A stretch of DNA of 64,000 nucleotides from positions 1 to 64,000 of the IMG/VR virus record IMGVR_UViG_3300009095_000011; one strand, given 5' to 3'. The notes under the pieces were generated by a model. That model worked only from the letters and a program-made list of their open reading frames with translations, made no database searches and had not been told where the DNA came from. The position numbers and the translations under genes were made by a program. This document shows positions 5,383-51,636 of this stretch, one piece after another (within the stretch, counting starts at the first letter, position 1; each line of letters starts with the position of its first letter). This DNA is from a virus (Duplodnaviria; Caudoviricetes).

Positions 5383-6180
5383 TCATTTCATTTCCATTTT
5401 TAATTCAACATGGGTATTATTTATTCCCTTGAAGCTTATATCATCAAGATTGAATCTTTTACCTTCAAGAAATTGTTTGCATATTTCATCTTCATTAAGA
5501 TAATGATTCTCTCCAAAAGTACAATGAGAGGTATCACTTACCCTATTGATCGGTACACCTACTAAGCATTGCTCTATCACACTGAACATATTGCTGCATT
5601 GTGGTGTGAACTTCTGTAACCTGCTTTCAAGTTTATTTGGATTAATGAAGCTTATCTTGTCTATTAGCTTTGTGATGAATTTTGTATCAAATATATTTCC
5701 ATCTACAGACAAAGGATAGGCAGCACATTTAACATTAATATCTCGTGGAATTGTTATGTAGTTCTTGTGAACCATAAAGTCCTTTAAGTATTTATATCGT
5801 TTCCCTAATCGTAAACTGAACACCCTTTTGGTGTGATATATGATTTCATGAATTTGTTCTGATTTTATTCTTGGAGGTCTAAAGAATATATCATCATCTA
5901 CAAGGAAAGTTAGTAGTGGAGTATTGTAGGAGTTGATATGGTTTATTATTGATTTTGTGATCTTCTCAAATTGATTGTCAACTAAATTTTCTTCCTCAAT
6001 GAAAGTTATATGATAATATTTTGAAGCTACATAATTGTATGTAGTCTCATGGTCTTTAGTTGTAGCTTTATAGATTACATAAATGTTATTATATAATCTT
6101 GGTGCGAATCGCTCTATGGATTCAATGAGGAGTTGTAATTGTGCTGCACGATTTTTTGAAAAAATGATACAATCAATCAT
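5383..6180 (-). CDS. GT-A-fold glycosyltransferase
   Basis: IIFSKNRAAQL N-terminus and FLVDDDIF DxD motif. Confidence 0.7.
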   Translation of the reverse strand: MIDCIIFSKNRAAQLQLLIESIERFAPRLYNNIYVIYKATTKDHETTYNYVASKYYHITFIEEENLVDNQFEKITKSIINHINSYNTPLLTFLVDDDIFFRPPRIKSEQIHEIIYHTKRVFSLRLGKRYKYLKDFMVHKNYITIPRDINVKCAAYPLSVDGNIFDTKFITKLIDKISFINPNKLESRLQKFTPQCSNMFSVIEQCLVGVPINRVSDTSHCTFGENHYLNEDEICKQFLEGKRFNLDDISFKGINNTHVELKMEMK

Positions 6181-29347: not shown

Positions 29348-30994
29348 TTGTGGGTTTTAAATGGTTTGCATCTTTAATGCAAATAAATTTATGATTTTAT
29401 TCTGTTCTTTAAGATGATATTGATCTTTATTGTCCTTATATTCTCTCCATAGATCAAATAAATCTTCTATGTTTACACAAGCTTTTATTCTTAACTCTAT
29501 GTCTATCTCATGATAGTCATTAGGCAATAAAGCTTTGATTATCTTTCTTATAACTTTCATGACTAATCATTCAAACCATGATTTAATATCTTCATCATCT
29601 ACCGTATACCTTGAATTATTTTCATAATGATCAAAATCAAGTTCATCCTGAGCATCTTTTGCAATTGCACCCATACCTTTAAATATTGCTATAAGAAACA
29701 ATATGCCTATTATAATTAAAAATATTACTACGGTTATCATGATTGAAATTTTTTACCATTTGGATAATGAGATAATAAATCAAATCCTTTTTTGTTTGAT
29801 TCAAGAAAAGAAAAGTCTATTTCTTCATGATCAAGCTTCATATATGGATGAGTTATTCTTTTACTTTCTTCTCTAAAATTCCAATTTTCAGTGATCTTAA
29901 CATCGCCCTTATTCATATAGGGCTGCATTGTGTTAGTTTTGTTTGAGACTTCCATAATAATTTTAATTATAATATAAATCAAAAAATTTATCAAACTTAG
30001 TAATAAAATGCTTTATAAAAAAGCCATTTTCGTTATACAATTGACATTCAAAATGACTACATTTATTGCCATTCTCTATTATGTTTGTTATTGTTTTAAC
30101 CCTTCCATTTTGATGATATTCATAGGAAGTTCCTGTCAACTTATTTGTTCCTTTTATCACACAATTATCCATATGTAATCTACCATCTGGATAATAAGAT
30201 AGTTTTCGCTCTTCCATCACACCGGTATTTTAGTTAACGTTCTGCTATCAAAATCTTTTCTTTCACACATCTCTAATGCCATTCTCCAAGCTTGAGATTG
30301 ATTCTCTGCTTTAAATGATATAGTGAAGTATGCATTTGTTGGCTTATCCATAACCTCAAAATGAAATGTTTTGTCTTGAGGAAACGACTTTATTATTCTT
30401 CCTGCGATCCTGTCTATTAACTGTTGCAATGGATCAGGAATAAATATTTTTCTTTGATTTGCTGTTGTCATAATTACGATTTTTAAGTACTATACCTATT
30501 GATGTTAATGACATAGAAGCTAATACAAAGGAAATGAATAATATTGCTATTTGTTCCATTTTGCACCTCCCTTATACACTACCCTGCCATCACTGAAAGT
30601 ATGAGCTACCTGTAATGATGGTTTAGGTATTCCTCTGAATTGGTTTATGAAGTTGTAAAAATTGGTTTCTGCTTGTTTAGTTTTAAAAGTAGGAACTTTC
30701 ATTGTTTTGTTCTTTAAATAAAAATTAATAACTCAATTCTCTCATTGTCATAACAGTTAAGCTTCTGAATTTCTGCCTAACCATACCTTTGATAAACACA
30801 TTAGTTTCCTCAATGTATAATCTACGTGCATCAACAGTCACTAACTGACCTTGTGAATTGAGTTTCAAAAATACTCCATCAACAAAGTTATCTCCCTTTA
30901 CAGCTCCACCATTCATCACTACTTCAAGTGCTTGATAAAAGTTTAAATCATAATTTTGCTTTTCCATTTCTTTATCTTTTAGTTAAACATCTAT

Positions 30995-31321: not shown

Positions 31322-31436
31322 CTTTTTTATTTTAGTTTACACTATAAATATACAACTTATATTTGATATATGCAAATGTTTATTTAAGTTGTATTTGCAA
31401 ATCCTTAAATATTTAATTAAAACTTAAATATAAAGT

Positions 31437-31485
31437 ATTGAAAATCAAATATTTAAAAACGGTTGTTTATATATAGTAGTTATCG
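31437..31485 (+). other. attI-like site of cassette array B
   Basis: ATTGAAAATCAA...TTATATATAGTAGTTA matches ATTCATAATCAA...TTATATATAATAGTTA next to the integrase. Confidence 0.65.
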
Positions 31486-31493
31486 GTAATTAG

Positions 31494-31706
31494 TTAGCCC
31501 ACATTAAACTCATAATCACATTTTCTACACCAAACATGATTTCCATTTCTTGTGAAGTTTTCTTCGCCTGATTTGCAATGTGGGCAAACTAACTTTCGCT
31601 CCGCACCGCTAACGGCAAATAAATCCAATAGCTGTTCGGATGCTTCCGTAACAGTTATCTGCCCATCATTTAGCTGTGTGCATATTTTGTAAATTTGTTC
31701 TTTCAT
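31494..31706 (-). CDS. Cassette B1 zinc-ribbon protein
   Basis: CPHC...CRKC; ATG lies in the attC-like loop. Confidence 0.65.
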   Translation of the reverse strand: MKEQIYKICTQLNDGQITVTEASEQLLDLFAVSGAERKLVCPHCKSGEENFTRNGNHVWCRKCDYEFNVG

Positions 31707-31739
31707 GTCGCTACTGTATTTATTTGCAAAACGTTATAA
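31607..31739 (+). repeat. attC-like site B1
   Basis: CGCTAAC-GGCAAATAAATCCAATAGC...GCTACTGTATTTATTTGC-AAAAC-GTTATAA. Confidence 0.75.
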
Positions 31740-31746
31740 GCAAGTG

Positions 31747-32544
31747 CTACCTTTCGTTTCCAAAGAGCGTTCCTGCTTGTAAATCTTTTTCTTTTCTTTT
31801 TTCTCCCACCCTTTTTAAAGCAATTTCATAATGGTCTTTTACTAATTCACTACCAATGTAATCACATTCATTTTCAATACAACTTAATTGTGTAGTTCCT
31901 ATTCCAGTAAAAGGTTCATAAATCAAACTACCTTTTGGAAAGTAAATATTTATCAGTTGATTTACCAAATCTTGTGAAAATGATGCTTTTAATTGACATT
32001 GGTATCCATCATTATTTCTTGCTTCAATATAATTCACATAGTTTTTGTAAAACTTTTGTCCTGTTTTCTCATTTACTTTACTCACTTCCTTATTGGTCTT
32101 GAATGTATGTAAATGTTCTTTTTTTACAAAAACATAAATCAATTCAGTAATCCTACTTAATTTGGTTGGAGAAGTCTGAAATGGTATTGCGTTTGGTTTC
32201 TTCCAACAAATAATATCAGCAATAGTTAAATCAGTTTCATTGTGAATTTTAGCAACCAATAATGTTGGTAGAATAGGATTTTCTTTTGCATAAGATATGT
32301 TGTAGCAAATTACACCAGTATCATTTATTACTCTTGAAAATTCTTTAAATTCATTTGTTCTAACTTCAAGATAATCATTCTCACTCAAACCATCTAATTC
32401 AGAATATCCATTATTGTAATAACAATCACTTCTTTCTGTATTAATGTTATATGGTGGTGATGTAATTATCCCATCAATAGATTTATCATAAAGTCTTTTC
32501 AAGGTAATCTTACAATCTTCGTTATAAATTATATTTCGTTTCAT
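31747..32544 (-). CDS. Cassette B2 DNA amino-methyltransferase (beta class, probably N4-C)
   Basis: TSPPY catalytic motif precedes EPFTGIGTT SAM motif. Confidence 0.88.
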   Translation of the reverse strand: MKRNIIYNEDCKITLKRLYDKSIDGIITSPPYNINTERSDCYYNNGYSELDGLSENDYLEVRTNEFKEFSRVINDTGVICYNISYAKENPILPTLLVAKIHNETDLTIADIICWKKPNAIPFQTSPTKLSRITELIYVFVKKEHLHTFKTNKEVSKVNEKTGQKFYKNYVNYIEARNNDGYQCQLKASFSQDLVNQLINIYFPKGSLIYEPFTGIGTTQLSCIENECDYIGSELVKDHYEIALKRVGEKRKEKDLQAGTLFGNER

Positions 32545-32640
32545 TATTCAATTTTTGTTTTTTACCACCGCACAAAAAAGAAAAGAAAAGAAAAAGGTTA
32601 GTCTTTCGATTCAAGTTCTGTGCTATAATACCGCACCAGC

Positions 32641-32771
32641 TTATAACAGCGTGTATAAAAAATGGCGGGTTCTCGGTTAATTTAAAGTTTTATAATTCTA
32701 ATTAAGTTCTGCGTTTTCTGAAAGTTTTGGAGTTCTAATCCGCCACTTCTTATACACGCAAAACGTTAGTT
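32641..32771 (+). repeat. attC-like site B2
   Basis: TTATAAC-A-GCGTGTATAAAAAATGGCGG...CCGCCACTTCTTATACACGC-AAAAC-GTTAGTT. Confidence 0.8.
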
Positions 32772-33044
32772 TCCATTTGGATAAGCAGCATTACCATCTT
32801 TTAAAGACCAGTGCCATCCATCATTCATCGTGTGTTTACGTGGTTTTCTATAAGCCTTTTGTCCGTTACTTAAATATGCCAATGTCTTAGACACATCTAC
32901 AACTTTCACAGCTTCCATCCTGTAATTATGATTTAGTACACCATGATATTTACGAACAAAAACCACGTCACCAATTTCTAAAAAACGGCAACTAACACCC
33001 GCTATAGTGCATGGCTGTTCGTTTTTTTCTGATATTGTATCCAT
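32766..33044 (-). CDS. Cassette B3 hypothetical protein
   Basis: Starts inside attC B3; its TAA stop is the TTA of the GTTA core. Confidence 0.6.
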   Translation of the reverse strand: MDTISEKNEQPCTIAGVSCRFLEIGDVVFVRKYHGVLNHNYRMEAVKVVDVSKTLAYLSNGQKAYRKPRKHTMNDGWHWSLKDGNAAYPNGN

Positions 33045-33111
33045 AATTTAAAGTTTATTTACTGTTTGGGTGCGTTGTTGAAAGCCACGCACCATAGCTT
33101 TTACGTTGTAG
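32990..33111 (+). repeat. attC-like site B3
   Basis: AACTAAC-ACCC-GCTATAGTGCATGGCT...AGCCACGCACCATAGC-TTTTAC-GTTGTAG. Confidence 0.8.
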
Positions 33112-33120
33112 GTAATAAAC

Positions 33121-33330
33121 CTACTCATATACTCGTAACACAAAAGTTACAGATTTCTTACACCTGTCCTCAGCCATCCATTCTCCATCCTCAGTTAAAT
33201 AGCTTTCATCTGTATTCTCAAAATAATTAGTATACAGTAACTTTGGGATTAAATCATCTCCGTCAGCCAGATTGTACACCTTACCTTTTGTGTAACTTTC
33301 TTTTATCTCTTTAATTAATTTCTTTGCCAT
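33121..33330 (-). CDS. Cassette B4 hypothetical protein
   Basis: 69-aa ORF between GTTGTAGGTA and TACCTACAAC. Confidence 0.6.
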   Translation of the reverse strand: MAKKLIKEIKESYTKGKVYNLADGDDLIPKLLYTNYFENTDESYLTEDGEWMAEDRCKKSVTFVLRVYE

Positions 33331-33370
33331 GTTATCAAGTTTTCGTTTTCAAATCCGTAGGCTTACATAC

Positions 33371-33426
33371 CTACAACACACGCTAAAACGCCATACAAGT
33401 ACAGGCGTTTAGCTACATCGTTAGTA
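33371..33426 (+). repeat. attC-like site B4 (short form)
   Basis: CTACAAC-ACAC-GCTAAAACGCC...GGCGTTTAGC-TACATC-GTTAGTA. Confidence 0.75.
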
Positions 33427-33430
33427 GTCA

Positions 33431-33682
33431 TTACTCATCATCTTCAGGATAAATAGACACGCCTTTTCTTTCACAGGGAGTTTTGCCACAATATTTACAA
33501 TAGCCTTCAGGCAACGAACCGCTAACATCGGCTAAATCCAATGCTTTGTTTCGTTTCAATTCATCAATTCCCCTTCTTACATATTTCTCTACATCAATAC
33601 CTTCGCTTTCAAGATAGGCTGTAGCTCCTTCGGAAGTATCAATATCAAATCCATTTACTATAGTCATAATTTTCGTTTTCAA
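33431..33682 (-). CDS. Cassette B5 hypothetical protein
   Basis: Most of the ORF lies in the attC B5 loop; ALDLADVSGS is the translated left arm. Confidence 0.6.
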   Translation of the reverse strand: MKTKIMTIVNGFDIDTSEGATAYLESEGIDVEKYVRRGIDELKRNKALDLADVSGSLPEGYCKYCGKTPCERKGVSIYPEDDE

Positions 33683-33714
33683 ATTCGCACTGGTTTAGTC
33701 GCGGCACGTTATAT
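33520..33714 (+). repeat. attC-like site B5 with expanded coding loop
   Basis: CGCTAAC-AT-CGGCTAAATCCAATGC...GCACTGGTTTAGTCG-CGGCAC-GTTATAT. Confidence 0.7.
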
Positions 33715-46045: not shown

Positions 46046-46624
46046 TTAATTTTTAATTTCATAACCTGCTTCATTTGGCGATGGAATATACACATTGTGC
46101 TCTATTGCAGCCCAATCTCTTATTGATTCAATATATTGACTAAATTCATAAGTGTCTTTGTCAGTGGTTGTTAATGGAATATTTCGAGTTTGAGTGATTG
46201 TAATAAACTTACCATACTTAGGCCAATTGTCAATATCAATCACTGTATATTTTGGTAACAAAGGGAGCTTATTGGAACTGATTAGCATATCATTGATATC
46301 TTTTTCTTCGAGATATTGTGCAGGTTTTTCAAATTCAAATATACTATCATCATAAACCTCAAAGTATTCGGTTTTTATTTCAATCTTTCTGCTATTGAAT
46401 TGTAGTTTGAGAATCTCATGCATCTCATCTGTATTATATCCAAAATAATCACTAAGGATTTTAACTACCACTGCAAAATAGTAACTGTTCTGTTCCCTTG
46501 ATCTATTTCTTCGATACTTCTTTATAGAAAACCAGTAAGCAATATCTTCAAGTGTTTCAAGATGTTTGAGTACTTTATCTCTGTGATGAGGATTAGACCA
46601 GTCTATAAGGATATCAAGGTTCAT
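46046..46624 (-). CDS. NinB/Orf-like recombination protein
   Basis: [32 protein letters not shown]....V.IP.P. Confidence 0.7.
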
Positions 46625-47433
46625 ATTGGTAATGGAATTTTATTGAGCAAATTAGTACTTACATGGGTGTATATTTCTGTAGTCTTACTTGAATTGTGTC
46701 CTAATAACTTCTGAATTATCCTTATATCAGTTCCATTCTCTAACAATGAAGTTGCACTTGAATGTCTTAATTGATGAAAATGATATTGATTGCCCAAATA
46801 TTTCTTTATAATTTGATTACAAGAAGTGGATGAATATTGAAGACAATTTTGACCATTAAATAAATATTCTTTTGGTTTATATTGTTTATAATAGTCTCTA
46901 AGTAATTTAAGAATATTTTCACTTAATGGGACAACTCTATCTTTTCTACCCTTGGCATTTTTGATATTAATTATCATTCGCTTACTGTCAATATCCTTAA
47001 TTTTAAGATTGATTACCTCAGATACCCTAAGTCCTACAGAATATGCAAGCGAAATAATTGCTTTATGTTTAATGTTTTCAATCTTGGGAATCTTATCTAA
47101 AAGATATTTTTGATCGATTATTTGAGGTAATTTTTTCTCTTTCTTTGGTCTGGTAAATGAAACCTTATCATACTTTTTGTTTAAGCCAAACTTATATAAA
47201 AACCTAATGGCATTTATGACTTGATTTTGTTGAGAAATAGAGGAGAAATTGTATTGATCAAGATAGGATTGGAAATCGCTTGCAACTAAATGTTGATAAT
47301 ACTTACCTGTACTTTGAATAAACTTATCTATATAGTGAATATAGATACTTATCGTTCTTTCTGAGTAATTAAGATATTTAAGCTTTCGTTCGCAAATCTT
47401 TAAAATATCTTCTTTTTTCTTATTCATAATCAA
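46621..47433 (-). CDS. Tyrosine recombinase (integron-integrase-like, no IntI-specific insertion visible)
   Basis: N-terminal SAM-like domain (YSERTISIY); catalytic GLRVSE, KGRKDR, HQLRH, LLGH, TEIY; ATG at 47427. Confidence 0.93.
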
Positions 47434-47470
47434 TAGTTTACAAGTTAAATCTTATATATAATAGTTAGGC
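47422..47470 (+). other. attI-like site of cassette array C
   Basis: GTTAGGC core at 47464 immediately upstream of the integrase start; motif shared with 31437-31485. Confidence 0.7.
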
Positions 47471-47480
47471 ACAATAAAAA

Positions 47481-47786
47481 TTATTCCTCTGGTGTATCTA
47501 ACATATATCTCCAATATTTAACGTCTGTAAAATCAGTGTACCAACTACCAGCACCTAAAATAAACCAATTATATTCGTGTTTGGGACTACCAGTTCTTTT
47601 TATCAACTGTAATTTTGCTGGAGTCCATATATCATCATAAAACACCAAAACATAATCACTTTCTCTTTTTTCTTCAACACTTCCTTCTCTTTTATCGCAT
47701 TCTGCAATTTCCCAAACTTCATTTCCTAGTTTTGGTATTTCATTAATTGTCAGTTTATAGTCCATAATTTTAAAAGTGCCTAACAA
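47481..47786 (-). CDS. Cassette C1 hypothetical protein
   Basis: ORF fills the cassette; likely start MDYKL; VKYWRY C-terminus. Confidence 0.6.
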   Translation of the reverse strand: MLGTFKIMDYKLTINEIPKLGNEVWEIAECDKREGSVEEKRESDYVLVFYDDIWTPAKLQLIKRTGSPKHEYNWFILGAGSWYTDFTDVKYWRYMLDTPEE

Positions 47787-47901
47787 AGTGTATAAGCAAT
47801 AGCCGTTAGACGTTTTAAACTATTGCAGTTGTTAATAATAATTTTTATTCTTCTAGTCAAGTTTTGTGTTCGGCTACTGCTCATACACTAAACCGTTGTG
47901 C
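47778..47901 (+). repeat. attC-like site C1
   Basis: GCCTAAC-AA-AGTGTATAAGCAATAGCCG...CGGCTACTGCTCATACACT-AAACC-GTTGTGC. Confidence 0.85.
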
Positions 47902-47907
47902 GCAATA

Positions 47908-48177
47908 CTACTCCGCTGGCTCATACGTTTTCACAAATATATCAGGCTTGCAGGGGTAAAATTCACCGTGTACGCCCTTTATAATCCAATCGCCTTTACG
48001 GGCTAAGTGGTCGCCTTCAAGAGTTTCAATGTAAAATGTTTGCGTTCCCATTTCTCCGGGCTTCCACTTGGTTAATCCCATATTCATAATGTGCTGCCAG
48101 CTTTCATCTGTGCCATCCCATTGAGCAGCTTCAATTACAACAGGTTTCTTTCTAAATTTCATATTCGTACTGCGCAC
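47908..48177 (-). CDS. Cassette C2 conserved phage protein (RKKPVVIEA...[11 protein letters not shown] family)
   Basis: Motif set widespread in phages; likely start MKFRKK. Confidence 0.75.
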
Positions 48178-48301
48178 AACACAAAATAAAATGCAGTGGG
48201 TTGTACGTCTTATTTACACTGCTTGCCTGTCTGTTAGTTTCGGTCAGTCGGACAGCTCAGGCTTATCTATCCCACCGACATTTTATTCAAATTCGTTGTA
48301 G
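48174..48301 (+). repeat. attC-like site C2
   Basis: GCACAAC-ACAA-AATAAAATGCAGTGGG...CCCACCGACATTTTATT-CAAATTC-GTTGTAG. Confidence 0.8.
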
Positions 48302-48305
48302 GCAA

Positions 48306-48587
48306 TTAGTCTGCCCTTTCACCACTTCCAAAACAAGTAAGACAGGGCAATATTTCATTAGTACCTTTACCACTAAAACCTTCGCCTTCACAATTCGGGC
48401 AAACTAACTGTTCGCTTTGCCCTACAACATTAGATAAAACCAATAATGCTTGGTCTATCTGCCGTTCTTCTTCTTGTAATTCAGACGCTATTTCAGCTAT
48501 ATACTGATCTACTTCTTTTGGCATTTTCTGAAACTTTTTATCTATTTCAGACTTTCGTTTTATAAGGATGTTTATTACTTTCTTCAT
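48306..48587 (-). CDS. Cassette C3 protein with DnaJ-type CxxCxGxG zinc finger
   Basis: CPNCEGEG...CLTCFGSG; the N-terminal half is encoded in the attC loop and left arm. Confidence 0.65.
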   Translation of the reverse strand: MKKVINILIKRKSEIDKKFQKMPKEVDQYIAEIASELQEEERQIDQALLVLSNVVGQSEQLVCPNCEGEGFSGKGTNEILPCLTCFGSGERAD

Positions 48588-48619
48588 CGCATTACTGTTT
48601 TTATCATTATACGTTGTGC
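48422..48619 (+). repeat. attC-like site C3 with expanded coding loop
   Basis: CTACAAC-ATTA-GATAAAACCAATAATGC...GCATTACTGTTTTTATC-ATTATAC-GTTGTGC. Confidence 0.75.
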
Positions 48620-48620
48620 G

Positions 48621-48836
48621 CTATAATGGCTGAACACCTTCATCTTTCATTAATTCTTGTGCTTCTTTTGTAGCCATCAATACAGCTAATGCGGCATCAG
48701 CCATTCTTTCGACTTGATTTTTCCCGTACCAACAAAAGTCTTGTAATACAGGTAATTCAAATACCTTATCAATTGCATCAATTAATTCTTTTCTTACATC
48801 TTGTTCTTGCTTTGAAATCATAATATTACAGCGCAC
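48621..48836 (-). CDS. Cassette C4 hypothetical protein
   Basis: ORF fills the cassette; likely start MISKQ. Confidence 0.6.
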   Translation of the reverse strand: MRCNIMISKQEQDVRKELIDAIDKVFELPVLQDFCWYGKNQVERMADAALAVLMATKEAQELMKDEGVQPL

Positions 48837-48963
48837 AACATTGTATATAAATCAGTGGCGTTGTACGTCTATTTTGAACCACCTTTGCTGTTAATTTAGT
48901 TTTGTGCGGTTAGCAATCTTACAGCTATTAATCGCCACCGCTTCATATACTTTACCGTTGTGG
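48833..48963 (+). repeat. attC-like site C4
   Basis: GCACAAC-ATT-GTATATAAATCAGTGGCG...CGCCACCGCTTCATATAC-TTTACC-GTTGTGG; loop similar to C2 (TTGTACGTCT...CTGTTA). Confidence 0.8.
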
Positions 48964-48992
48964 TGCATTAAAACGATTGCACAACAACCATA

Positions 48993-49024
48993 CAAATATA
49001 AACGTTTTATCTATTAGATGCAAG
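48993..49024 (-). promoter_or_regulatory. Promoter at the distal end of array C, facing the integrase
   Basis: Minus strand TTG-N20-TATATTTG (Bacteroidota consensus). Confidence 0.65.
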
Positions 49025-49038
49025 AAAAGTGTGGAGAA

Positions 49039-51636
49039 TTATACTCCACAAGTTCCACCACCAGTAAGTTCACAAACATCATGAAATTCTTCTTTAAATT
49101 CCTCACCAACCTTATCAATAGCTTCATGATATGGTACAATTGTTAATGGCTGTCCACCTCTGGCAGAATCTGGATAACAAGTGAAACCTCTCAATCTGTG
49201 AGCATATTTAAGTAATGTATGAGCAAAATGATCAACAAGAGATTCATTGTTGTATTTAGATCCCCACTTGGGAAAATTAATTGTTGACGAAATACTCATA
49301 TCAACATAATCTTGCACATCAGCTTGAAATCTTATCCTTCTTTCATAATCTTTTGCAAGATCAATTGCACTTTCAATTTTGTCTGGATTAATTCCAAATT
49401 GATTAATTAATATTTCGGCAGTTCCATCAACTACATATTGATAATGCCAATCTTTATCGCTTTTTAGATATCTTCTTTTGTAAGCAACTGCAAAAATAGG
49501 TTCAATTCCAGTTGAAGTTCCTGACAAAATCCCAATGCTGCCAGTAGGTGCAATTGCCCTATACGCAGCAGGTCTTGATATGCTTAATTGATCACATAAT
49601 TCATTAGCTGCATTTTCTGATTCATCTTTATAGACTTGCAACCACTGCCTTAATTCATCATTCATTTCATAATTATAATCTCTTTTCAATAACCATTCAT
49701 GAACACCCATAAGGCCAAGTCCCAATCTTCTATTTTTCTTTCTTACCTCATAAACTTTATCATAAGGCAAATCAGCCTTTAAGGTTCCACACACAAGGAA
49801 TTTACTCATTAAACGAACAACCATTCTGAATGTCTCTATATCATCAATTCTGGACATATTAAGAGACGCAAGGTTACAAACATCGCTATCATCTTCACTC
49901 ACCACTTCTGTGCAAGCATTTCTTAGAGTTTGATTTACTTTTTCAAAGAAATTAAAGCTAAAACCAGGTTCACCAGTTTGACAAGCTTGTCTACAATTTG
50001 TAAGAAATGTTGGAGGAATATGTTTTATTTCTAATTGTTCGCCTGCTAAATACTTAGCTTTAATTTGATCAATTGGTAATTGATAAACTTGCTCAAGAAA
50101 ATCATTGTCATAATTAAGACTTATGTTTGTCATATCTAATGGAGCAGGGAAATTAAAATCTTTCTCTTTTAATGTACCGACATTAGTATTGGCTATCTTT
50201 TGAGAATGCCAATCTTTAGCTTTAAGAAATTCAGGTATATCTCCATGTTGCCAATTGAGAGAAGCATAAATAGCTGAACGCCTTGAGCCACCTTGCATTA
50301 CTTCTCTACCAATTTCATTAATAATCCTCATTGCACTGACTGCACCAGAAGCTACACCACCAGTTTTTGACAATTTACTGCCACGTGGCCTATAAACACT
50401 ATAATCAATCCCTATTCCTCCACCTGTCATAAGACAAGATTGTGCTCTCCAAGATAAATTAGCCCATTCTTCACGTGTATCGCTTTCAGCTTTTAACAAG
50501 AAACAATTAAATGTATCAATATTATTTTCAAGTATAAATCTATTATACACAGGTTCATAAGGACAATAAACATCCTCTTTTCCTAATGATCTGATAGAAT
50601 CAACCTTAAACCCCTCCCACCTTTCGCCATAATTATAATTAATAGTATAAATTCTAGAATGTTTTTTATATGCCGTCTCTCTATCCTGAAATCTTTTTTC
50701 TCCACTTATAACTAATCCAGCACATATAGCATTATCTATAAAATAATCTATATGAGATTCTGTTACAGAATTTATTTTTTTTCCTACTTTCTCGCAAGCA
50801 TCTGCTTTAATCCACCCTAATATAAATCCACTTATATAGTCAGTAGTTTCATTTTTACTTGGTAACTCTTTAAAATTTATATCATTCCAAATTCTAATAA
50901 CAGCATCTCCATTATAAGTTTTTGGAAACTTGATATTATATTCAATATTAAGTTCTTTTAAATAATCTTCTACTTTATTTAAATAAGACATATTCTTTTC
51001 TCCACATAAACGAATCTTATGTGTATATTTTTGATCTTTGTTTCTTATTCTTTCAAGATTTCCATCGCCAAATATTAAACCATGAATCCATCCCCTTTTA
51101 CTAAAATTAGAAAATTTTCCAGCAGGAACTACATCACCGATTCGCAAATCATAAGTATCTTTACCATTTATTAAAGGCCAATGATGAGTTCTTGTAGATT
51201 TTATTTTATAAGATATGTTGGAATTGCCCCTAATTGGTTTAAATATAATTTCTTGCACATCTTGTTTCCCATGATAAATTATCTCAGAAGGATAATATTT
51301 ACCATCAATAGGAGATTTTAACATTAAAGTTTTTCCTACATTAGATTTTAAATCTTTTAATCCAAAATCAGTTAAGACCTTAGTTTCTCCCGCAAAGCAA
51401 TTGTTAAAAAATTTATTTTCTCTACCAGCATAATATAAATATCTACCTCCCGCAATTGCTTGCATATCAGTATGAATTTGAATTAATTGTCGTATTTCAT
51501 CTTTAGTAAGCAAATCTCCACAAACATCATTTATTAGTGTTTTACTTAATTTATCCCACGTTTCACAATCTTTGTGTGCATATTTGTGATTAAAAATGTC
51601 TTCGGAGAATTTACTTCTGAAATATTTCTGACTCAT
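49039..51636 (-). CDS. nrdJ: Class II (B12-dependent) ribonucleotide reductase with intein
   Basis: GGRYL, GGGIG, GGSRRSA, NACTE, APTGS, GIEP, C-terminal Cys pair; no adjacent small subunit gene. Confidence 0.88.
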   Translation of the reverse strand: MSQKYFRSKFSEDIFNHKYAHKDCETWDKLSKTLINDVCGDLLTKDEIRQLIQIHTDMQAIAGGRYLYYAGRENKFFNNCFAGETKVLTDFGLKDLKSNVGKTLMLKSPIDGKYYPSEIIYHGKQDVQEIIFKPIRGNSNISYKIKSTRTHHWPLINGKDTYDLRIGDVVPAGKFSNFSKRGWIHGLIFGDGNLERIRNKDQKYTHKIRLCGEKNMSYLNKVEDYLKELNIEYNIKFPKTYNGDAVIRIWNDINFKELPSKNETTDYISGFILGWIKADACEKVGKKINSVTESHIDYFIDNAICAGLVISGEKRFQDRETAYKKHSRIYTINYNYGERWEGFKVDSIRSLGKEDVYCPYEPVYNRFILENNIDTFNCFLLKAESDTREEWANLSWRAQSCLMTGGGIGIDYSVYRPRGSKLSKTGGVASGAVSAMRIINEIGREVMQGGSRRSAIYASLNWQHGDIPEFLKAKDWHSQKIANTNVGTLKEKDFNFPAPLDMTNISLNYDNDFLEQVYQLPIDQIKAKYLAGEQLEIKHIPPTFLTNCRQACQTGEPGFSFNFFEKVNQTLRNACTEVVSEDDSDVCNLASLNMSRIDDIETFRMVVRLMSKFLVCGTLKADLPYDKVYEVRKKNRRLGLGLMGVHEWLLKRDYNYEMNDELRQWLQVYKDESENAANELCDQLSISRPAAYRAIAPTGSIGILSGTSTGIEPIFAVAYKRRYLKSDKDWHYQYVVDGTAEILINQFGINPDKIESAIDLAKDYERRIRFQADVQDYVDMSISSTINFPKWGSKYNNESLVDHFAHTLLKYAHRLRGFTCYPDSARGGQPLTIVPYHEAIDKVGEEFKEEFHDVCELTGGGTCGV
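50506..51399 (-). mobile_element. Intein (298 aa) with LAGLIDADG-type endonuclease in RNR
   Basis: NN|CFAGETKV ... TRTHHW ... GLIFGDG ... EDVYC ... DTFN|CFLL. Confidence 0.88.

Follow-up and report, generated by a model that had tools for sequence, protein, structure and literature searches.

A probable phage-owned site-specific gene-cassette platform that works like an integron

Here we analyse a 64,000-nucleotide stretch of viral DNA (Duplodnaviria; Caudoviricetes), positions 1 to 64,000 of IMG/VR record IMGVR_UViG_3300009095_000011. This stretch, hereafter the window, makes up the first 64 kb of a viral record of 114,226 bp that is rated complete. Next to a gene for a 270-amino-acid (aa) Xer-type tyrosine recombinase (46621-47433, minus strand), the window carries an array of small gene cassettes that probably forms a phage-owned site-specific gene-cassette platform working like an integron. 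The evidence consists of the anatomy of the locus, its conservation, covariation in the stems of its sites, an asymmetry between strands, polymorphism at the docking site that is exact at the level of the cassette, and nested arrays in cultured isolates. A first-pass annotation had described a phage-encoded integron-like platform with inverted cassette logic at this locus; what it observed was confirmed, and its interpretation is supported by our results. The minus strand carries every gene from 44 to 51 kb and is termed the gene strand below.

The array consists of four cassettes bearing an open reading frame (ORF), plus one ORF-less mini-unit, with imperfect hairpins between units. Units are bounded by inverted termini GTT…AAC of 8-10 nucleotides (nt), which are exact reverse complements at 47464/47784 (9 nt), 47895/48180 (10 nt), 48295/48428 (8 nt) and 48613/48839 (10 nt). 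The opening GTT of each of these four units complements the unit's own AAC, exactly as had been reported, and chance is excluded as the origin of the inverted termini. In 1000 dinucleotide shuffles of 47434-49040, 9-mer GTT..AAC pairs averaged 0.16 against 4 observed and 8-mer pairs 0.61 against 7 observed, and in neither case did any shuffle (0/1000) match the observation. The description of four units, each with one ORF and one hairpin, stands as to the number of ORF-bearing units, but the AAC of the third unit lies inside its ORF and a fifth, ORF-less unit is present.

All units lie on the minus strand. Cassette 1 (47464-47894) comprises a unit at 47464-47784, with an ORF of no known family (47481-47765), and a 5' hairpin site (47785-47894) that is matched at 47775-47904 on the minus strand (E = 7e-9) by a covariance model built from relatives only. 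Cassette 2 (47895-48294) holds a unit at 47895-48180, with an ORF (47908-48177) matching PHROG family phrog_419 of unknown function, and a hairpin site (48181-48294) with a minus-strand fold of -18.5 kcal/mol (z = -3.1). Part of this 89-aa ORF (47921-48001) shows 71-84% nucleotide identity over ~75-100 nt to genes of phages with very different hosts, with matches in SPP1, Acinetobacter phage 133 and Streptococcus, Staphylococcus and Microbacterium phages. Cassette 3 (48295-48612) combines a unit at 48295-48428 with an expanded hairpin site (48429-48612), the arms of which (48433-48449 and 48589-48605) are 88% complementary; its 93-aa Zn-ribbon ORF (48306-48587) has its start and N-terminus encoded in the 139-nt hairpin loop and reads through the AAC core. 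Cassette 4 (48613-48956) has a unit at 48613-48839, with an ORF of no family (48621-48836), and a hairpin site (48840-48956) matched by the same model at 48830-48966 on the minus strand (E = 0.006). Both the folds and the custom covariance model thus bear out the imperfect hairpins described earlier. No Rfam family matched the array region. A promoter-like site had been proposed at the far end of the array (48993-49024); a scan for consensus sigma-70 promoters returned fewer matches than in shuffles and none at that position, although the promoter type of the host may differ.

The mini-unit (48957-48988) has inverted termini around a ATCGTTTTAAT loop, a motif that many relatives, as well as Polaribacter phage P12002L, carry in 29-nt units and 46-nt sites. 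ORF-less units of 29-34 nt, in the window and in four contigs of relatives (L024, L033, L050 and L067), share with 46-nt sites (e.g., L173 at ~29995-30054) a common (A)TCGTTTTAAT(G) loop, and such units may be empty cassettes or minimal sites. Cassette 1 also has a counterpart in Cellulophaga phage phi18:3. Between cassette 1 (47464-47484 and 47764-47784) and phi18:3 gp035 (L005, 3826-3846 and 4004-4024), the hairpin is 85% identical and the 21-nt leader and trailer are identical up to the start and stop codons, and the ORFs inside these matching frames, of 94-101 aa and 60 aa, are unrelated. Cassette frames that stay conserved while their ORFs are exchanged may have a bearing on how cassettes are made.

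The array abuts an attI-like docking site (47448-47472, minus strand) that reads …GTGCCTAAC/TATTATATATAA on the gene strand, the slash marking the cassette junction, which falls within or just after AAC (47464-47466, plus strand). Its core GTTAGGC (47464-47470) lies 31 nt from the TTG start of the recombinase and 37 nt from the first ATG, in agreement with the earlier estimate of about 35 bp upstream of the ATG. The conserved part of the site adjoining the recombinase is …TAAC/TATTATATATAA on the gene strand. Across the family, the consensus taTAAC/TAttaTATATaaa lies 30-40 nt upstream of the recombinase start and is conserved in 63 distinct relatives, which upholds the claim of a docking site beside the recombinase gene, and a TAAC/TATTATATATA site, written TAT(T/C/A)ATATATA after TAAC, is carried by nearly all recombinase relatives. 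In more than 60 loci, the end of the array coincides exactly with the site beside the recombinase gene. An attI-like insertion site adjacent to the enzyme gene, a defining trait of integrons, is therefore present here, as indicated by the exact insertions and nested arrays found at it. Three contigs of relatives (L010, L030 and L079) stop no more than 7 nt from the docking-site AAC, and further recombinase matches also lie near contig ends, as would be expected if assemblies break where populations differ in cassette content.

Our scan of viral contigs showed that at least 210 of them encode relatives of the recombinase, 58-72% identical to it. In the majority of testable loci, an exact reverse complement of the 10-mer ending in the docking AAC is present 100-1000 nt upstream, and downstream there is no reverse complement of 9 nt or longer. 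These counts are from 9-10-mers only, as walking along chains of 8-mers drifts to AT-rich chance matches (e.g., in Polaribacter phage Freya). Arrays in the relatives range from 1 to at least 14 units, with termini of typically exactly 10 nt and site lengths that cluster near 46, 86 and 122 nt. The longest ORF (median 92 aa) was on the recombinase strand in 106 of 108 distinct cassettes; therefore, the "inverted logic" by which ORFs point towards the recombinase holds across the family. Nearly half of these recombinase-strand cassettes (49/106) have their ORF start inside the upstream site, which is the design of cassette 3. Bacterial genomes yielded homologues of at most 55% identity, bar one 74% partial match on a 2-kb contig of a Chitinophagales metagenome-assembled genome; the bacterial homologues with upstream sequence had no docking motif, and many had coding sequence directly upstream.

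A structure alignment of 22 sites of the 86-nt class gave a consensus with a 5-bp stem (TAACG with TGTTA), a 3-4-nt bulge confined to the 5' side, and a long stem. Paired cells reached 97.8%, compared with 81% in shuffles and 34-58% with slid partners, and compensatory changes occurred at 11 of 21 pairs. One G·T pair was invariant across all 22 sites; a second was conserved in 21/22 sites and a third in 15/22. With DNA parameters, the gene strand folded better in 75 of 86 sites (p = 7e-14). In integrons, strand choice is set by extrahelical bases and an unpaired central spacer. Folding both strands had been suggested earlier as a check on conserved extrahelical bases; it showed the asymmetry, and no such bases were predicted in the sites, which have the one-sided 3-4-nt bulge and fixed G·T wobbles instead. 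Imperfect hairpins with AAC/GTT boxes, in which the start of the cassette complements its own AAC box, are an arrangement known from integrons and are present here. The relatives-built covariance model also finds sites in Cellulophaga phage phi18:3 and in Polaribacter phages Freya_10 and P12002L, and all its matches at E ≤ 1.6 are on the gene strand. The cassette 1 site has counterparts of 84-91% identity in phi18:3 and in five contigs of relatives (L009, L021, L023, L065 and L074), where they flank other DNA. A 428-aa tyrosine recombinase beside the phi18:3 cassettes proved to be unrelated.

Closely related genomes differ by whole cassettes. Contigs L015-L018 have recombinase DNA that is 100% identical; L018 and L017 diverge exactly at TAAC and share nothing upstream, and L016 has one additional cassette (119-915) between the first cassette of L018 and the docking site, starting right after AAC and ending in AAC. 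The pairs L022/L024 and L026/L027 behave in the same way. Among cultured phages, Polaribacter phages Freya_1, 5, 9 and 10 encode a 271-aa recombinase 39% identical to that of the window. Their flanks are 99.8-100% identical and their arrays are nested, stopping at Freya_10 positions 6079, 7823, 10714 and 11021, each just after AAC and each followed by the same docking sequence, which is the pattern expected of serial insertion, or loss, at an attI. Additionally, the Danklef phages, a different species from another host strain, hold 38% of the Freya array at 97% identity. The first-pass annotation had named a fixed gene order in relatives as the observation that would speak against it; instead, both the relatives with identical recombinase genes and the Freya isolates vary by whole cassettes with ends exactly at AAC.

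The two sides of these junctions share only 3-4 nt, which indicates that the crossover is not homologous but site-specific. Position -4 varies together with the GTT-box of the same cassette, and this locates the exchange inside AAC or immediately after it. For unitigs from other metagenomes, the match to the window breaks off at 47467, 47897, 48429 and 48615, or sets in at 48294, and these positions are the cores; the Logan data used here are unitigs, and a joint 48201>48827 with short sides was not interpreted. From the observed boundaries, a cassette read on the gene strand is a hairpin site followed by an ORF. Consequently, the gene strand corresponds to the bottom strand of integrons, and the ORFs run opposite to those of integron cassettes.

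The enzyme has the two-domain Xer architecture with catalytic R-H-R-H-Y. Pfam domains Phage_integrase PF00589 (E = 1.5e-39) and Phage_int_SAM_4 PF13495 were both recovered, and all of 37 family members share R136, H220, R223, H246 and Y255, consistent with the reported tyrosine recombinase with all catalytic residues. Its placement relative to IntI and Xer rests on profile scores and structures. The best NCBIfam profile is XerA, and in the profile search the enzyme remained below the curated cut-offs for XerA (183 vs 220 bits), XerC (148 vs 335) and XerD (147 vs 330), with an identical ranking in all 37 members; weak matches to DNA-invertase profiles were also obtained. It fails the integron-integrase profile TIGR02249 (154 bits vs a cut-off of 265), matching it in two stretches with positions 181-259 unmatched. 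The enzyme is colinear with the XerA structures 4a8e and 5hxy and has 36 residues where IntI4/VchIntIA (2a3v) has 84. XerA and VchIntIA were the top folds for its AlphaFold model (predicted local distance difference test, pLDDT, of 83), with XerA first, and the model has no extra helix at the position of the IntI insertion. Hence, the absence of an IntI-specific insertion, noticed previously from the translation, is confirmed. We conclude that the recombinase is not an integron integrase, as the defining IntI feature, the I2 insertion, is missing, and that, with an enzyme colinear with XerA, the platform is not a canonical integron. A passage in PMC7790495 presents acquisition of the I2 helix as the step by which integron integrases moved from double-stranded towards single-stranded DNA recombination.

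These features suggest how the platform might operate. On the gene strand, the mobile unit would read AAC/ bulge, stem, loop, stem, GTTA…ORF…TAAC/, that is, a hairpin site and then one small ORF. The Xer-type recombinase would pair the docking site beside its own gene with a folded cassette site, and strands would be exchanged within or just after the AAC triplet. With exchange at the docking-site AAC, cassettes would enter directly upstream of the recombinase gene and could leave as circles. Once a unit is excised as a circle, its 10-nt termini would form a perfect stem with each other, which would explain why the opening GTT-box complements the unit's own AAC-box and not that of its neighbour. 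We infer that this recombinase is the catalyst and that it acts on folded single-stranded DNA of the gene strand, the counterpart of the bottom strand in integrons; replication would then resolve the product.

A second array of about five cassettes lies at 31479-33710 (minus strand), with termini pairs and hairpins around two Zn-ribbon ORFs, an N6/N4 DNA methyltransferase (Pfam PF01555) and three small ORFs. It begins at a docking-site motif identical over ~24 nt to that of the main array and has no recombinase gene; the covariance model matches it at 32638-32774 (E = 4.5e-8) and 32987-33114. To the left of this motif, 31325-31478 aligns weakly (74%, gapped, in AT-rich DNA) with the 5' end of the recombinase gene and, judging by this alignment, may be a relic of a second copy. 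In the three Zn-ribbon ORFs of the window (48306-48587, 31494-31706 and 33431-33682, minus strand), the AAC core falls at in-frame V-(S/V)-G codons and the N-terminal helix is encoded in the hairpin loop. With default filters and E ≤ 1, the covariance model found no further sites at 64-114 kb of the record. A generic whole-genome energy scan for AAC-hairpin-GTT was uninformative, with 137 matches vs 202 in the reversed control.

Some neighbouring genes were also inspected. A gene for a NinB/Orf-type recombination mediator (46046-46624, minus strand; phrog_72, E = 4e-14) overlaps the end of the recombinase gene, stop codon included, by 4 nt; we rejected it as a part of the system because it occupies that position in none of 80 relatives. 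On the other side of the array, an 865-aa ribonucleotide reductase ORF (49039-51636, minus strand) has a possible intein-like insert, judged from its translation alone, and a terminator-like hairpin (49050-49030) follows its stop codon directly before the array.

Several other explanations of these arrays should be considered. The hairpins could be conserved regulatory modules (terminator, promoter or leader) that are swapped by homologous recombination between them, as has been proposed for the promoter-stem-loop cassettes of T4-type phages. The high identity between sites of different cassettes (84-91%), their position 5' of ORFs, where they often hold the start codon, and G·T pairs that would be G·U in RNA are in line with such modules. 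However, the break points are exact to 3-4 nt at AAC and involve a docking site that is not a hairpin, and homologous exchange does not create cassette-specific 10-nt end complementarity, so we regard this origin as quite unlikely. It is very unlikely that the recombinase is only a lysogeny integrase with the conserved site as its attP, the arrays being made otherwise and merely abutting it. Bartlau et al. (2021), who reported Freya genomes of 44.0-48.9 kb, took the integrases of Freya, Danklef and Leef as a sign of temperate potential and lifestyle, and arrays do exist without this enzyme; yet over 60 loci have an array that stops precisely at the site next to the gene, isolates show cassette differences at the docking site in their virion genomes, and the bacterial homologues (≤55% identity) lack the motif.

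Elements acting in RNA only, as processing or translation-control hairpins around ORFs with incidental DNA polymorphism, would account for the better folding of the gene strand, the conserved G·U-compatible pairs and the co-orientation of all units with transcription. They would leave the exact whole-cassette insertions and deletions, the docking site and the linkage to the recombinase unexplained, and no Rfam family was matched, making this explanation highly improbable. Finally, perfect inverted repeats of 8-10 nt flanking units beside a small tyrosine recombinase, together with its weak DNA-invertase profile matches, could indicate invertible segments flipped by the enzyme, as in shufflons or invertons. 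Given that 106 of 108 cassette ORFs are on the recombinase strand, flipped states are essentially never seen, and the variation is of presence or absence rather than orientation; the chance of an inversion system seems close to negligible.

The proposal of a cassette platform should itself be considered under several constraints. All the evidence is comparative, and no recombination product, circle or enzyme activity was observed. Arrays without this recombinase exist (the second array, P12002L and phi18:3), and the recombinase could also, or only, serve lysogeny. It lacks the I2 helix, the step that PMC7790495 ties to single-stranded DNA recombination. Of six phage sites, IntI1 recombined all except P12002L_attC1, which belongs to this site family (PMC9892861). 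The fixed G·T pairs would become G·U once transcribed, so the hairpins may have a role in RNA, in addition or as an alternative, and the identity between sites of different cassettes makes some homologous exchange possible.

Compared with integrons, especially sedentary chromosomal ones with homogeneous attC, the phage locus shares a tyrosine recombinase gene beside a docking site, an array of one-gene cassettes, imperfect hairpin sites with AAC…GTT boxes, first bases of the cassette that complement its own AAC box, new cassettes adjoining the docking site, and strand asymmetry. It differs in residing in phage genomes and in an enzyme without the IntI insertion, whose score does not reach the curated IntI cut-off. 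In integrons, intI is divergent and ORFs read away from attI, whereas the phage recombinase is co-oriented with the cassettes and ORFs point to the docking site. The attC of integrons is 3' of the ORF; in contrast, phage ORFs are on the equivalent of the bottom strand, with the site 5' of the ORF and often encoding its N-terminus. The terminal box is 7 bp in integrons and 10 bp here, and extrahelical bases are replaced by G·T wobbles and a one-sided bulge.

Xer systems would offer a precedent for the proposed chemistry, in which an I2-less Xer-type enzyme acts on a folded hairpin partner. XerCD integrates the folded single-stranded DNA of the CTX phage at dif. Archaeal XerA is the closest to the phage recombinase in fold and sequence. 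The phage enzyme differs in being phage-encoded, in serving cassette arrays rather than chromosome resolution or whole-phage integration, and in scoring below the XerA cut-off. The pdif modules of Acinetobacter plasmids, in which 28-bp sites of the host XerCD occur in inverted orientation, and the promoter-stem-loop cassettes of T4-type phages are likewise small gene modules with short repeated sites that shuffle between replicons. These modules depend on XerCD sites or homologous recombination, and are not known to have an adjacent dedicated recombinase, a docking site or cassette-specific terminal complementarity. Our literature search found no published description of a phage's own recombinase with a docking site and cassette array, and the nearest report is that of Qi et al. 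2023 (PMC9892861), which described attC-site clusters with no integron integrase (CALINs) in virulent phages, notably P12002L. P12002L_attC1 is a 46-nt member of the site family described here and bounds a methyltransferase cassette, whose termini GTTAGGCAC/GTGCCTAAC are the same as those of cassette 1 in the window. That study treated such sites as stray integron parts; a dedicated recombinase, a docking site and an orientation rule are not among its findings.

Overall, we lean towards the view that an I2-less Xer-type lineage runs hairpin-based cassette capture in Bacteroidota phages, either convergent with bacterial integrons or derived from a shared ancestor, with sites that double as 5' leaders and N-terminal coding modules. 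Integrons are regarded as devices of bacteria, and lately of archaea as well, with IntI as their defining feature; the phage genomes described here show this cassette logic with a simpler enzyme and inverted genes. If our view is true, integron-style gene capture would extend beyond bacteria and archaea and would not require the IntI innovation, and the system would bear on the origin of integrons, while shared frames with different ORFs and ORF-less units would bear on the unsolved birth of cassettes. The system is widespread among viral contigs and also occurs in phage-host pairs that are in culture and tractable (Polaribacter phages Freya and Danklef), and its recombinase and site might offer a new compact pair as a tool. 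For the phages themselves, it would explain the gain and loss of small accessory genes, such as DNA methyltransferases, a likely anti-restriction cargo.

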